From a virus (Duplodnaviria > Caudoviricetes), in IMG/VR virus record IMGVR_UViG_3300005512_000237, positions 1 to 29,012 of that record: 29,012 nucleotides of DNA. One strand, 5' to 3'. This document shows positions 1 through 18,797 of the stretch, in pieces (within the stretch, counting starts at the first letter, position 1; every line of letters starts with the position of its first letter). Below the pieces are notes generated by a model. That model was not told where the DNA came from. It did no database searches and saw only the letters and a program-made list of their open reading frames with translations. The translations under genes and the position numbers were made by a program.

Positions 1-54
1 TATGATAACAAAGTATATTAATTAAGTAAGATGAGTTGAAAGAGAGGACTTCAA

Positions 55-3246: not shown

Positions 3247-3498
3247 ATGTATAATAAAAGAAAGAACTTTAAGAAAGAAGAAACACCACAAGGCATGACA
3301 GTTACAGTTCGTAACGGTGATGTAAATGGTGCAATTCGTGTCTTAAAAAAGAAACTTATCAAGGACGGTTTGTTTCAAGAAATACGAGAAAGATCTTTCT
3401 ACGAAAGTAGAGGAACAAAACGCAGAAAGGCAAAGGCCGCTGCAACTCGTAGATATAAACGAAAAATGCAAAAACGATTTGAAGAACTTGGTTACTAA
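3247..3498 (+). CDS. rpsU: phage-encoded 30S ribosomal protein bS21
   Basis: VTVRNGDVNGAIRVLKKK...GLFQEIRERSFYE...KRRKAKAAATRR matches the bS21 pattern; highly basic. Confidence 0.88.
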   Translation: MYNKRKNFKKEETPQGMTVTVRNGDVNGAIRVLKKKLIKDGLFQEIRERSFYESRGTKRRKAKAAATRRYKRKMQKRFEELGY

Positions 3499-4493: not shown

Positions 4494-4567
4494 GCGGGCA
4501 TCGTATAATGGTATTACCTCAGATTTCCAATCTGATGACAGGAGTTCGATTCTCCTTGCCCGCTCCA
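4494..4567 (+). tRNA. tRNA-Gly (TCC)
   Basis: GCGGGCA/TGCCCGC acceptor, TCAGA-TTTCCAA-TCTGA anticodon arm, CCA. Confidence 0.95.
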
Positions 4568-4574
4568 AAATCTA

Positions 4575-4603
4575 TTGACATTCATTCTGTTTTAGGATAA
4601 TAT
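4575..4603 (+). promoter_or_regulatory. sigma70-type promoter for rnh
   Basis: TTGACA 4575-4580, 17 nt, TAATAT 4598-4603. Confidence 0.7.
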
Positions 4604-4631
4604 ATAATACTATGAAAAAAGGTGATAAACT

Positions 4632-5492
4632 ATGATTTTAGTGGACATGAACCAAGTCACCATCAGTAATCTTATGATGCAGATTGGTTCTAAACGACAA
4701 AACGATGTTGATGAGAATCTAGTTCGCCATATGGTTTTAAACTCTATTAGAATGTATCGTTCTAGGTTTATTGAAGAATATGGTGAGTTGGTTCTTTGTT
4801 ATGACAGCAAGAAATATTGGAGAAGGGAATACTTCCCCAACTACAAATCCAACCGTAAGAAGGATAGAGAAAACTCTGGCCTTGATTGGAATCTAATCTT
4901 TGAAACTCTAAACAATATTCGTGATGAGATTAAAGACAACTTTCCTTATAAAGTATTAGAAGTCGAAGGTGCAGAAGCAGACGATTGTATTGCTGCTGTA
5001 GTTGAATATGTTTCAACAACACCATCTGCATTTGAGAATGTTCTTATCTTGTCTGGTGACAAGGATTTTATTCAGTTGCAAAAACACAACTTTGTAAAAC
5101 AATATTCACCAGTTCTCAAGAAGTTTGTGAACGGGCAAGACCCTCACCTATATATTAGGGAACACATATTGAAAGGTGATAGAAGTGATGGAGTTCCAAA
5201 CTTCTTATCATCTGACAATACATTTGTAGATGAGTTGCGTCAGAAACCACTGACAAAGAAAAAACTGGCTACATGGATTGACCTTGAACCAGCAGATTTT
5301 TGCACAGAGGAGATGATGAGAAATTATCAACGCAACAGAACATTGATTGATTTGGATTATATTCCAAGTGACTTGAAGGGTAAGATTCTTGAAGAATACG
5401 AGAAACCCCCAAAAGGTGAAAGATCAAAACTACTAAATTATTTTATACAAAAGAGATTGAAAAATCTTATGGATGACATTGGAGACTTTTAA
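4632..5492 (+). CDS. rnh: T4-type RNase H / 5'-3' exonuclease
   Basis: ILVD, YWRR..FPNYKSNR, EADD, SGDKDFIQL, GDRSDGVPN motifs. Confidence 0.92.
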   Translation: MILVDMNQVTISNLMMQIGSKRQNDVDENLVRHMVLNSIRMYRSRFIEEYGELVLCYDSKKYWRREYFPNYKSNRKKDRENSGLDWNLIFETLNNIRDEIKDNFPYKVLEVEGAEADDCIAAVVEYVSTTPSAFENVLILSGDKDFIQLQKHNFVKQYSPVLKKFVNGQDPHLYIREHILKGDRSDGVPNFLSSDNTFVDELRQKPLTKKKLATWIDLEPADFCTEEMMRNYQRNRTLIDLDYIPSDLKGKILEEYEKPPKGERSKLLNYFIQKRLKNLMDDIGDF

Positions 5493-5493
5493 T

Positions 5494-5946
5494 ATGGTAC
5501 AAGACACATATACACCTCTACTTTCTGAGGTTCTAAAGAAAGTGCATAATGCAAAAACTAAGGATAAGAAGGTTGAGCTTCTAAAACAATATGATTGCGA
5601 ACCGCTTCGTATGGTTTTGAAATCATCTTTCGACCCCAACATTGAGTGGGAAATTCCAGAAGGGGAAGTTCCATTCCGAGCAAATCAGGCAGAGGAAGGA
5701 ACAGAACATACTGTGCTTCGTAAAGAGGCAAGGAAACTTTATCGTTTCATCAAAGGTGGTGATGATACAATTCCTAGATTCAAAAAAGAAAACCTATTTA
5801 TTCAACTGCTAGAGGGCTTGCATAAATCTGAAGCTCAACTAGTAATTGATGCGAAAGACAAGAAACTGCATCAAGTCTATAAAGGATTGTCTGATAATGT
5901 GGTTAAAGAAGCGTTCGGTTGGACGGACAATTATACAAGGAGTTAA
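5494..5946 (+). CDS. conserved hypothetical protein of T4-like phages
   Basis: ORF after rnh with FIQLLEGLHKSEA motif; start moved to 5494 after GGAG. Confidence 0.75.
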   Translation: MVQDTYTPLLSEVLKKVHNAKTKDKKVELLKQYDCEPLRMVLKSSFDPNIEWEIPEGEVPFRANQAEEGTEHTVLRKEARKLYRFIKGGDDTIPRFKKENLFIQLLEGLHKSEAQLVIDAKDKKLHQVYKGLSDNVVKEAFGWTDNYTRS

Positions 5947-5952
5947 ACTTAT

Positions 5953-6486
5953 ATGAAAGACAACTACAATCACTGTTTAGAAATGATTCTGCATCACGAA
6001 GGCGGTTATGTAAATCACCCTAAAGACCCTGGCGGCGAAACCAATATGGGAGTAACTAAAAGAGTTTATGAGTCATGGTGTATGGAAAACGATCTTACTC
6101 AGAAGGACATGAAAGAACTAGAGTTTGATGATGTCGCACCAATATATAGAAAAAATTATTGGGATAGAGTTAAGGGCGATGAACTACCAGCTGGTTTGGA
6201 TCTTTGTGTGTTCGATTTTGGTGTTAATGCCGGCACTGGTAGAGCTGCTAAATATCTTCAGAATATGGTAGGTGCAACTGCTGATGGCGCAATTGGCCCT
6301 GCGACACTTAGAGCGGTAAATGCATATATTCAAGTAGAAGGACTTGCTGCAGCGATTGATACATATCAATCAAATCGTCAAGGATACTACGAATCACTTA
6401 AAACCTTTGAAACCTTTGGTAGAGGTTGGACTCGTAGAAATACAGAAACGACATCTTCTGCACAAAAACTTGCAAAAAACTCTTGA
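5953..6486 (+). CDS. GH108 lysozyme with peptidoglycan-binding C-terminal domain (endolysin)
   Basis: HEGGYVNHPKDPGGETNMGVT, DFGVNAG, DGAIGPAT, FGRGWTRR. Confidence 0.92.
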   Translation: MKDNYNHCLEMILHHEGGYVNHPKDPGGETNMGVTKRVYESWCMENDLTQKDMKELEFDDVAPIYRKNYWDRVKGDELPAGLDLCVFDFGVNAGTGRAAKYLQNMVGATADGAIGPATLRAVNAYIQVEGLAAAIDTYQSNRQGYYESLKTFETFGRGWTRRNTETTSSAQKLAKNS

Positions 6487-6511
6487 CTTTATAGTAACTT
6501 AGTATTACTAT
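6483..6511 (+). promoter_or_regulatory. sigma70-type promoter driving a non-coding transcript
   Basis: TTGACT 6483-6488, 17 nt, TACTAT 6506-6511; no SD-bearing ORF before the terminator at 6584. Confidence 0.7.
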
Positions 6512-6516
6512 AAAAG

Positions 6517-6609
6517 AATGGTTGGGGGTATATACCTCTCTTTCTCTCATTACTCACTTATACCCCCAACCACTCTTTAAAAAGCCCTTGATTTTCAAGG
6601 GCTTTTTTT
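6517..6609 (+). ncRNA. putative small RNA: 14-bp stem displaying a 26-nt pyrimidine-rich anti-RBS loop
   Basis: TGGTTGGGGGTATA 6519-6532 pairs perfectly with TATACCCCCAACCA 6559-6572; own promoter and terminator. Confidence 0.65.
6579..6609. terminator. bidirectional intrinsic terminator
   Basis: AAAAA-GCCCTTGA-TTT-TCAAGGGC-TTTTTTT. Confidence 0.9.
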
Positions 6610-6621
6610 AGCAAAAAGTGC

Positions 6622-6650
6622 TTGACTTTGTTCTAATAACATAGTAGCAT
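6622..6650 (+). promoter_or_regulatory. sigma70-type early promoter with TGTT-N5-AACA box
   Basis: TTGACT 6622-6627, 17 nt, TAGCAT 6645-6650; box at 6629-6641. Confidence 0.75.
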
Positions 6651-6679
6651 ATACTTGTAATGATGAGAAAGAGGTTTTT

Positions 6680-7093
6680 ATGAACATTGTTGAAGTCACT
6701 GGTGGGAACAAGTTTCAGAGAGCAATTGCTGAAAAGGTTGTCTATGAGATGATTCATGCACTTATGCCTCGTATGAGAACTCTAGAAATTGAAGTTCAAA
6801 TCAAAAAACTAACTGGTGATGCAGTTGGTTGGTGTATGATGGAAGACACCAATCGTGAGTTTACTATTGAGGTTTCAAAAGATCTTACTCTTAAAGATTT
6901 TGTCACTACCGTTTGCCATGAAATGGTTCATGTAAAACAGTATGCTCGAAAAGAAATTGACGGTTATGGTGAGAAGTGGAAGGGTAGAAAGATTACTCCC
7001 AAAACTGATTACTACGATTTGCCTTGGGAAAAGGAAGCTTATCGAATGCAAGACAAACTTGCTCAGTTAGTATGGGATGCTGATATTTTATGA
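6680..7093 (+). CDS. zincin-like (HExxH) metallopeptidase-domain protein
   Basis: TVCHEMVHVKQY plus downstream LPWEKEA. Confidence 0.75.
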   Translation: MNIVEVTGGNKFQRAIAEKVVYEMIHALMPRMRTLEIEVQIKKLTGDAVGWCMMEDTNREFTIEVSKDLTLKDFVTTVCHEMVHVKQYARKEIDGYGEKWKGRKITPKTDYYDLPWEKEAYRMQDKLAQLVWDADIL

Positions 7094-7350
7094 TTAATCA
7101 AGAAATAAGAAATAGAATTAAATTGTCAGTCGCTGCATATGCATATGAAATGGAAAATGATTCTATTATGAGTGATGCAGACTTTGATAGTCTTTGTAGA
7201 GAAATAAAGGTGAATGAGTCTACAGGCAATGAAAAGATGGATAATTTCTTCAAGACAGAATTCAATCCTTCTACTGGCCAGTGGATACACAAACATCCAG
7301 AATTAGATAAAATAAAAATAATTTACAACAAATATTACAAAAGTTCTTGA
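7090..7350 (+). CDS. standalone protein resembling NAD-dependent DNA ligase subdomain Ia
   Basis: AAYAYEMENDSIMSDADFDSL resembles LigA YY..D.P.ISDAEYD; 86 aa, no KxDG. Confidence 0.6.
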   Translation: MINQEIRNRIKLSVAAYAYEMENDSIMSDADFDSLCREIKVNESTGNEKMDNFFKTEFNPSTGQWIHKHPELDKIKIIYNKYYKSS

Positions 7351-7375
7351 CAATTAGCGAATCATTTGTTATCAT
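7347..7375 (+). promoter_or_regulatory. sigma70-type early promoter
   Basis: TTGACA 7347-7352, 17 nt, TG-extended TATCAT 7370-7375. Confidence 0.8.
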
Positions 7376-7407
7376 AACTAAGTAAGATGAGAAAAGAGGA
7401 AAAAACT

Positions 7408-7716
7408 ATGGAACAAGTTGCAGTTATTCACACAGCGTTTGAGGGTTCACCATCAACCGTTGCGTTTGTAAACGTGAAAGAGGATATGACTTTAAGTGAG
7501 AAACTTGAGTATGCATATCGTTGGACACAAAACATCTTTGACAGTTGGTCATTGAAGATGCCAGAAGATGGTAATGATGATGTGACAGTTATAGGTGATA
7601 TCTCTAGTGGATACGGTTTGAGGTCTACTTCAGTTGGTGATCAAATATTGGTTGGTACTGAAAAATATGTAGTCGCTCCAATGGGATTTAAAACACTTGA
7701 TGGAGAACCAATATGA
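7408..7716 (+). CDS. hypothetical early protein
   Basis: start moved to 7408 after SD AGAGG; RSTSVGD motif. Confidence 0.78.
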   Translation: MEQVAVIHTAFEGSPSTVAFVNVKEDMTLSEKLEYAYRWTQNIFDSWSLKMPEDGNDDVTVIGDISSGYGLRSTSVGDQILVGTEKYVVAPMGFKTLDGEPI

Positions 7717-7886
7717 GTAATCTAGTAAACGAACAAGTCAAAGAAGCTATTCTTGATGAAGTGGAATCAATGACTATCAGTCAATTTCAAAATGCAGTAG
7801 ATGCTGCTGGTGTTTCTGGAAACACTATCGTTGATGAGATGGTAGAAAATTTGGTTGAGTATCTTTTTGAACAAAGGAGTGTGTAA
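7713..7886 (+). CDS. small hypothetical protein, 57 aa (not in ORF track)
   Basis: MSNLVNEQVKEAILDEVESM...EQRSV; ATGA and TAATG overlaps with both neighbours; SD GGAG. Confidence 0.8.
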   Translation: MSNLVNEQVKEAILDEVESMTISQFQNAVDAAGVSGNTIVDEMVENLVEYLFEQRSV

Positions 7887-8137
7887 TGGGTAAAGTGAAA
7901 GATATGTTGATGGATGTAGAAGAGTTTGTTTATGACTTCTACGACAAAGAAGGCAATCTTATGAAGTCGCCTGCATTTATTATTGATGCTGCTAAAAAGA
8001 AGTTTGGAATTTCTTTTGGTGAATATGCAGAAGAAGTTTTAGAGGGTGACAATGATATGGAGCCTGATTGGGATTGGAATAAAACCGTATCTCAAAACCT
8101 TGTTGGTTACGAGCTGGATGATGAGATTCCTTATTAG
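7886..8137 (+). CDS. hypothetical acidic protein
   Basis: SD AAGGAG; acidic C-terminus DDEIPY. Confidence 0.8.
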   Translation: MGKVKDMLMDVEEFVYDFYDKEGNLMKSPAFIIDAAKKKFGISFGEYAEEVLEGDNDMEPDWDWNKTVSQNLVGYELDDEIPY

Positions 8138-8270
8138 TATGATGGTAATTTTGTCTTTAGGGGGATGCACTTCAGCAGAGCTCGCTGCTACAATGTATAA
8201 AAAGTGTATCTCCAAAACTTTGGATGATTGTCCTATCAAGCATCCTAGTGAGTGGTGGGTTGGAGTATGA
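8118..8270 (+). CDS. small putative lipoprotein
   Basis: MMRFLISMMVILSLGGC, lipobox LGGC. Confidence 0.6.
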   Translation: MMRFLISMMVILSLGGCTSAELAATMYKKCISKTLDDCPIKHPSEWWVGV

Positions 8271-13300: not shown

Positions 13301-13314
13301 AGAATAACCTACCA

Positions 13315-13363
13315 CGTTCATCCTCAGTAGAGGACGGAAGTATGCATAATGCAGAAGGAACGC
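13315..13363 (+). ncRNA. glnA-type (glutamine-I) riboswitch aptamer
   Basis: P1 CGTTC/GAACG, P2 TCCTC/GAGGA, conserved CGGAAGTA, P3 TGCA/TGCA, GAAG E-loop strand. Confidence 0.8.
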
Positions 13364-13388
13364 ACTCAACTGTAAAAAGGAGAGTGGT

Positions 13389-18723: not shown

Positions 18724-18731
18724 TATAAATA
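18724..18731 (+). promoter_or_regulatory. T4-type late promoter
   Basis: TATAAATA, overlapped by an 11-bp inverted repeat (18728-18738 / 18753-18763). Confidence 0.78.
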
Positions 18732-18797
18732 GTATTGTGAGTTGAGAAGAAAACAATACTATTACCTTATCATTTGTAACGTAACAAGGAAATACAA

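Follow-up and report, generated by a model that had tools for sequence, protein, structure and literature searches.

Positions 6483-6609 of a 29-kb T4-like phage fragment (29,012 nucleotides, all of which we analysed and call the window) contain a promoter, a long hairpin with a CU-rich loop, and a terminator. Judged by sequence and conservation, this unit is a real, uncatalogued phage small-RNA gene. Its product is probably a trans-acting antisense RNA, directed against AG-repeat ribosome-binding sites in the phage's own mRNAs. An initial annotation of the window had proposed that such an RNA shuts off translation of the early genes. We find a conserved non-coding unit, and predicted pairing with early leaders beyond that due to base composition or Shine-Dalgarno (SD) strength. 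Covariation between loops and leaders was not significant. An off-switch acting on early genes alone is plausible yet too restricted, because the longest perfect complements of the loop sit in late accessory leaders. The predicted target class comprises the early-cassette genes and, for part of the lineages, accessory genes that are expressed late and located behind gp32, in an operon of the curli type or another envelope operon. Replication genes with ordinary SDs fall outside this complementary class.

A promoter, hairpin and terminator downstream of a lysin gene

The window encodes gp32, gp59, gp33, RNase H, baseplate proteins and ribosomal protein bS21 (the last at 3247-3498). The closest annotated phage is Methylophilales phage Melnitz, with 72% identity and 77% of window positions 4600-8200 covered. 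The hairpin unit sits between a GH108 lysin gene (5953-6486, plus strand; Pfam PF05838 and PF09374; phrog_315 endolysin) and a SprT-like early gene that starts at 6680. It begins with a predicted sigma70-type promoter, TTGACT-17-TACTAT (6483-6511, plus strand), and the -35 box overlaps the lysin stop codon (6484-6486). A lysin C-terminal motif is found at most 300 nt upstream in 39 of 57 related units.

Placing the start from the -10 box, the predicted RNA is about 93 nt long (6517-6609, plus strand). A 14-bp stem (5' arm 6519-6532, 3' arm 6559-6572) holds a 26-nt CU-rich loop (6533-6558), which is the predicted pairing region. An intrinsic-terminator-like hairpin and T run follow (6579-6609). 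All of these parts had been described in the initial annotation and are confirmed; the stem is perfect and the loop is as written. The fold of 6510-6615 has an energy of -45.6 kcal/mol (z -9.3), equalled by none of 200 shuffled sequences, and the mean predicted unpaired probability across the loop is 0.997. Note that the terminator hairpin itself (6579-6607, -17.3 kcal/mol, then the T run) is absent from the list produced by a simple terminator scanner. A frame that opens at an ATG at 6518 has 20 codons and no SD, in keeping with the earlier claim that no SD-bearing ORF is present.

A short inverted repeat occupies the promoter spacer and -10 box (6492-6510). Such repeats, of at least 7 bp, occur in 27 of 40 distinct unit promoters compared with 52 of 170 other sigma70-like promoters. 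Their arms change in step, and G-U makes up 40 of 292 pairs. The repeat may perhaps serve as an operator, or as a hairpin at the 3' end of the lysin mRNA. At the other end of the unit, a site resembling the IHF consensus is present in the terminator region of 29 of 59 units, just 5' of the next early promoter. In the window's terminator region (6579-6609) this site has one mismatch.

Other features of the window are as follows. An early protein of 116 aa (328-678) has a sigma70 region-4 domain (PF04545) and is a candidate regulator of early promoters. There is a glutamine riboswitch at 13313-13366, and Melnitz has been described with one too. A start-lysine-stop mini frame (2568-2576) overlaps the start of the gene at 2573; additional upstream ATGs recur in relatives. 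A tRNA gene (4494-4564) is located 2 kb upstream of the hairpin. It is much like the tRNA found 3' of the hairpin in many relatives (compared with that behind position 3444 of the relative L001), and an RNA contig joins the lysin end to the window tRNA (joint 6489-4494). Of 24 RNA runs listed, all assembled as contigs of relatives, eight were compared with the window: among the pieces listed none crossed the hairpin, and in four of these runs 6524-6577 was left uncovered. Contigs of this kind show neither transcript ends nor levels, and such gaps count neither for nor against transcription.

Conservation of the unit among relatives

A promoter-anchored scan of 194 records, many of them the same contig twice, gave 57 distinct stem-loops. 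The window and one further locus, L034, were added by hand to make a set of 59 units. Further, more diverged units were found in G012, G018, G021, G022, L243, L259, L355 and L358. Melnitz carries the unit at 37259-37352 of its record, under an annotated hypothetical CDS. By this comparison, Melnitz-like marine T4-like phages share a conserved, non-coding hairpin gene, of which the window unit is one version. Across the 59 aligned units the TTGAC, TA and AT promoter positions are invariant, in part by construction because units were gathered with a promoter pattern.

The stem arms are diverse, with a mean identity of 65%, and pairing is retained. Arms pair with their own partners at -21.1 +/- 2.5 kcal/mol and with foreign partners at -12.8 +/- 4.3 kcal/mol. 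For 27 hand-picked units of the 59, RNAalifold predicted eight consensus pairs, and seven of these had two-sided changes; the compensating changes that the initial annotation suggested looking for are thus found. A pairwise count over 493 helix pairs gave 974 two-sided and 735 one-sided changes, with helices picked per sequence and counts that are not independent. The plus strand folds better in 41 of 59 units and G-U accounts for 80 of 921 pairs. A minus-strand reading, with an AG-loop decoy, is disfavoured by promoter orientation and by the G-U pairs. A coding or leader-peptide reading is ruled out: the ATG is missing from 15 of 59 units and the remaining frames range from 5 to 67 codons.

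Loop architecture is kept, with two CU lobes flanking an A-rich hinge. In 55 of the 59 loops the hinge reads CUCA and then A or U. The start of the window loop had been likened to the 16S 3' tail. This likeness is only loose, since the core CCUCC is found in 0 of 59 loops, and the same absence rules out a strict 16S-tail mimic. An exact search of viral contigs with the window loop sequence gave 0 matches, and this loop is, by comparison with the others, an unusual variant.

No Rfam 15 family covers the unit at gathering threshold; all 64 weak matches fall below their gathering scores (best 28.1 against 86). In bacterial and archaeal genome contigs we found 18 exact-pattern matches, enclosed by helices of 4-9 bp, and in these the unit architecture was absent. 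No unit was detected in the Pelagibacter phages Mosig and HTVC008M (weak blanks, with no first-look candidates). In two syntenic loci of another lineage (L065, 2186-2347; L055, 1289-1447) the loop motif is within a hydrophobic ORF of about 52 aa. This ORF lies behind an early promoter and is conserved at the DNA level; possibly, it is a dual-function form.

Predicted loop pairing with early leaders in the window

The initial annotation listed six early leaders that match the loop. All six matches are present, and each one overlaps or directly adjoins the purine-rich start signal. Ranked among 55 window starts, the predicted target sites, all on the plus strand, are those of the gene at 55, for which the -35 box is outside the window (26-47, -23.7 kcal/mol, rank 1), the SprT-like gene at 6680 (PF10263; 6657-6675, -22.5, rank 2), and the genes at 1383 (1362-1376, -19.4, rank 4), 2573 (2541-2561, -19.1, rank 5; full site -22.5), 7408 (7385-7399, -18.4, rank 7) and 745 (727-740, -17.0, rank 8). 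The six leaders have a mean of -20.0 kcal/mol, compared with -8.5 kcal/mol for the 49 other window starts. The sigma70-led leader of RNase H (4604-4631, plus strand) is a predicted non-target control. Core leaders, for RNase H (4604), exonuclease (12232) and gp32 (17221), score between -6.2 and -8.1 kcal/mol.

Shuffled controls were exceeded by the early leaders of the window. The early-leader mean was matched by 0 of 1000 shuffled loops (shuffle mean -11.8) and by 0 of 1000 leader shuffles with the SD core kept (shuffle mean -12.6). In a sliding scan of both window strands, the top three non-self sites were early leaders. Opening the early leader sites costs 1.5-4.9 kcal/mol, to be set against window duplexes of -15 to -22 kcal/mol. 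Note that relatives are the fairer test, because the six window targets came from the earlier list.

Predicted loop pairing with early leaders in relatives

In 32 of the 33 loop groups of relatives, early leaders outpair internal starts; the pooled energies are -12.8 for early (n = 147), -8.3 for internal (n = 886) and -5.3 for sigma70-led core leaders (n = 44), the relatives in these pooled tests not being independent. The weakest class comprises the sigma70-led replication genes (RNase H, exonuclease and gp32). The motif TGAGA is present in 45% of 118 early, 3% of 739 internal and 0% of 33 core leaders. GGAG is rarer in predicted targets, at 19% of early versus 43% of internal leaders. After controlling for SD strength, purine content and G content (109 early, 31 core and 718 internal leaders), an early effect of -3.1 +/- 0.3 kcal/mol persists. 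The L034 group is included in the 33 early-versus-internal groups and excluded from the SD-controlled test and from the own-versus-foreign test that gave p 0.15, along with the pure CU-repeat comparison made there.

Genome-specific co-evolution of loops and leaders, which the initial annotation had put forward as a check, was not significant: the comparison of own with foreign early leaders gave p 0.15 (33 groups) and p 0.096 (12 groups). Two unusual loops, those of the window and G012, rank first for their own early leaders.

In Melnitz, with annotated starts, 21 promoter-led leaders did not differ significantly from 195 others (p 0.24). A p of 0.0006 was obtained only after we chose starts ourselves and removed core genes (13 versus 195). 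Genome-wide, early leaders were 0 of the 11 best non-self sites in Melnitz, no class of start exceeded shuffles, and avoidance of loop pairing by essential genes, also tested, was not seen. TGAGA was found in 0 of 5 promoter-led leaders of Mosig and 0 of 7 of HTVC008M, two out-groups that have a different host and give thin support. Mosig has three (AG)4 start regions and no detected unit.

Long exact complements in late accessory leaders

A search with the loop core also returned reverse-sense matches, and these surfaced as late partner sites. In G003, the ribosome-binding site of a gene for a 138-aa protein is an exact 20-nt complement of the phage's own loop. The site is internal to an accessory operon behind gp32, 13 kb from the RNA gene, and late accessory ribosome-binding sites are four of the five best non-self sites in this genome. 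A 26-nt block is identical in L231 (protein 82% identical) and L200, and the flanks differ. Distant homologues of the 138-aa gene in other lineages (L232 and L233) have an ordinary AGGAG; no unit was found in these two fragments.

A second case is the lineage of L259, L285 and L355. Here, one late leader and the loop of its own lineage match over 17 nt, a stretch that takes in the lineage-specific 3' end; with the 13 other loops its match is 13 nt at most. By position and sequence, the operon behind this leader resembles the curli operon of Melnitz.

The window has a candidate late partner site at 18737-18752 (plus strand), behind a late promoter at 18724 and 45 nt 5' of a 162-aa gene (18798). 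It pairs with the window loop at -16.3 kcal/mol; with the loop of the close relative L001 it is exactly complementary over 16 nt (-25.7). An 11-nt block at 18738 is conserved in eight loci and its flanks vary. Partners of at least 17 nt were found in 4 of 16 genomes or loci, representing two lineages. In the remaining 12, the window and Melnitz among them, exact partners measure 9-12 nt, which is the chance level. Because the G003 site is mirror-like (18 nt), a reversed-genome control does not hold for it. For post-gp32 genes, comparing in-group with out-group (105 versus 7 genes, the out-group being too small) gave p 0.056.

The long exact late sites are, in our reading of the sequences, the strongest sign of RNA-RNA pairing, because such matches are expected from neither 16S pairing nor protein binding. 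Inverted copying is one way in which the sites could have originated, yet they have been retained since.

Several features surround these loci. An inverted repeat (18728-18763) spans the late promoter at 18724 and encloses the AG block of the window. Similar repeats are in L238, L241 and L336, and are not in L236, L237, L276 and L240, where the block is still present. In L285 (11097-11140) and L259 (11139-11180), a small hairpin separates the 17-nt site from an SD-less start codon. In our reading, this hairpin could place the AG tract close to the ATG, and RNA binding would open it. In G003 (L230, 7167-11534), L231 and L200, a different late operon replaces the Melnitz-type curli operon. It encodes small proteins with signal-peptide-like starts, for which no Pfam match above cut-off was found, and its last gene has a CHAP domain. 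Several of its genes have AG-repeat ribosome-binding sites.

Other explanations for the CU loop

The RNA might aim mainly at host mRNAs with AG-rich starts, as a form of host shut-off, the AG leaders of the phage being strong extended SDs that pair with the 3'-most bases of 16S rRNA, or a promoter-proximal DNA motif. We think this unlikely, although parts of the data fit. Early leaders are also favoured by the 16S tail (-10.0 versus -7.7), so AG tracts have another reason to exist. By our reasoning, a G-U pair allows an AG repeat to bind that tail. Furthermore, TGAGA is anchored to the promoter: in 59 leaders its spacing has a standard deviation of 1.7 to the -10 box, versus 2.9 to the ATG, and 54 of them have it 11-14 nt downstream of that box. 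Such tight placement is also compatible with a DNA-level element. A host target would agree too with the lack of significant genome-specific co-evolution, and lambda PreS targets host genes (10.1101/2024.10.31.621285). It would leave unexplained why the early effect survives control for SD strength, and why the motif follows both early and late promoters and also occurs at an internal ribosome-binding site. Moreover, 17-20-nt exact complements in late leaders are inexplicable by 16S pairing.

Binding preferences of Rho, S1 or a cold-shock-type protein raise another prospect, that the CU loop is a protein-binding decoy and its match to AG leaders incidental. This has slightly less to recommend it. 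A pure CU repeat separates early from internal leaders almost as real loops do (-4.4 versus -4.7 kcal/mol; shuffled loops -0.6), the number of CU units slips freely among close relatives, and loops are almost free of G (14 G in 1029 nt of 40 loops), all as a decoy might be. Against this stand the conserved, A-containing hinge, which mirrors the UGAG of the leaders, and the long, exact, lineage-matched partner sites.

Alternatively, pairing might be positive, with the RNA capping and stabilising the 5' ends of phage mRNAs or opening leader structure. The predicted sites are at or near predicted mRNA 5' ends, the late site of the window is 45 nt from its start codon, and RepG either represses or activates according to repeat length (PMC8295292). 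We regard this as improbable, given that the SD itself lies within the predicted duplex, both in early leaders and in G003.

Superinfection exclusion as the main role, with the RNA silencing early genes of incoming relatives and having little effect on the programme of the phage itself, is a shade more improbable again. Loops do pair about equally with foreign and own leaders, and RNA-based exclusion by prophages is known (STnc6030 and sas; PMC12197685). Such a role is compatible with the antisense explanation and not exclusive of it, and it does not account for exact late-leader sites of the same lineage.

Finally, a cis element only (a tRNA precursor leader, a terminator spacer or a 3' stabiliser of the lysin transcript) is very improbable: a pattern count does place a tRNA-like sequence after the hairpin and ahead of the terminator in 29 of 59 units, and in L059 (1585-1636) a similar CU-loop hairpin is in the 3' UTR of an early gene, its own promoter not in view, but half of the units, the window included, have no tRNA, and a cis spacer needs neither a conserved loop sequence nor distant exact complements.

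Comparison with described RNAs

At the sequence level, the unit resembles trans-acting sRNA genes. It has its own promoter and terminator with no conserved ORF, a conserved unpaired seed on a compensating structure, and complementarity to start regions beyond chance, which is weak in Melnitz. Phage RNAs that regulate by base pairing include c4 of P1 and P7. Others are PreS, VpdS, sar, OOP and STnc6030 (PMC12197685; 10.1101/2024.10.31.621285), with sar blocking translation initiation of a phage gene (PMC12197685). In the parts of these two sources covered, the phage sRNAs described either belong to temperate phages or act as cis-antisense RNAs of a single gene; among them is no trans RNA of a lytic phage acting on a class of its own leaders.

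Cuckoo RNAs of Alphaproteobacteria (RSs0680/CcsR, SmelC397 and others) have two to four hairpins, each with CCUCCUCCC, and occur on bacterial replicons (PMC4615179). They likewise use variable, compensating stems to present a conserved anti-SD-like pyrimidine loop. In contrast, the CU-loop unit has one long CU-repeat hairpin and a terminator, and belongs to lytic phages. The CCUCCUCCC motif was not found in CU-loop units (CCUCC in 0 of 59), only one motif hairpin stands beside the terminator, and the 18 exact-pattern matches in bacterial and archaeal contigs are the ones noted above.

The terminator loop of Helicobacter pylori RepG pairs with a G homopolymer of one operon (PMC8295292). In both systems a C/U-rich loop is matched to a simple purine repeat of varying length in a 5' leader. 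The CU-loop unit differs in having a dedicated hairpin, separate from the terminator, with AG dinucleotide repeats as its sites, in many phage leaders.

RegB of T4 is a protein endoribonuclease that cuts GGAG/U; regB is transcribed from an early promoter and its product inactivates early mRNAs via their SD regions (PMC3014915). Being made early, and inactivating early mRNAs at the SD, is the job predicted for the CU-loop RNA. The element here is non-coding, and the RNA is predicted to pair with sites of the AGAGG or UGAGA type.

Literature searches returned no description of the CU-loop family, the supplements of PMC10690425 being covered in part; these may contain it as an unnamed candidate entry. 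In the part of the Melnitz paper covered, the terms sRNA, small RNA, noncoding and hairpin are all absent (PMC9004378). That paper describes simplified timing control with no middle promoters.

A model for the CU-loop RNA

We propose that host RNA polymerase would transcribe the RNA of about 90 nt from the first minutes of infection. The stem would keep the loop open and protect it, and the RNA should be stable and accumulate. The CU lobes, having no fixed register, would capture AG-repeat leaders, cover the SD and block translation. Translation of the early cassette would then be damped as the RNA builds up. Note that early timing of the RNA is no objection, since T4 regB is likewise early and inactivates early mRNAs. 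The RNA would also keep late accessory mRNAs in check until these are in excess over it; alternatively, they might serve as its sink. Leaders of incoming relatives would also be hit, because the loop is register-free and not genome-specific.

More tentatively, this lytic lineage may have marked a whole class of its mRNAs with AG-repeat ribosome-binding sites, and a single RNA may close the early genes, hold back late operons for the envelope or lysis timing, and then be titrated by the late 17-20-nt complements. Early shut-off in T4 is achieved in part by the nuclease RegB. If the fuller scheme is true, an RNA clock for both ends of infection would replace this protein nuclease.

The unit is present in cultured Melnitz, which has an OM43 host, and so is directly testable. 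If the antisense reading is true, the pair of loop and leader would offer a compact anti-RBS/RBS pair for synthetic use. Within the literature searched, the RNA would have no precedent among lytic T4-like phages as a trans RNA of this kind. An RNA that reads a class of ribosome-binding sites would then supply a missing post-transcriptional layer in a widespread group of marine phages.
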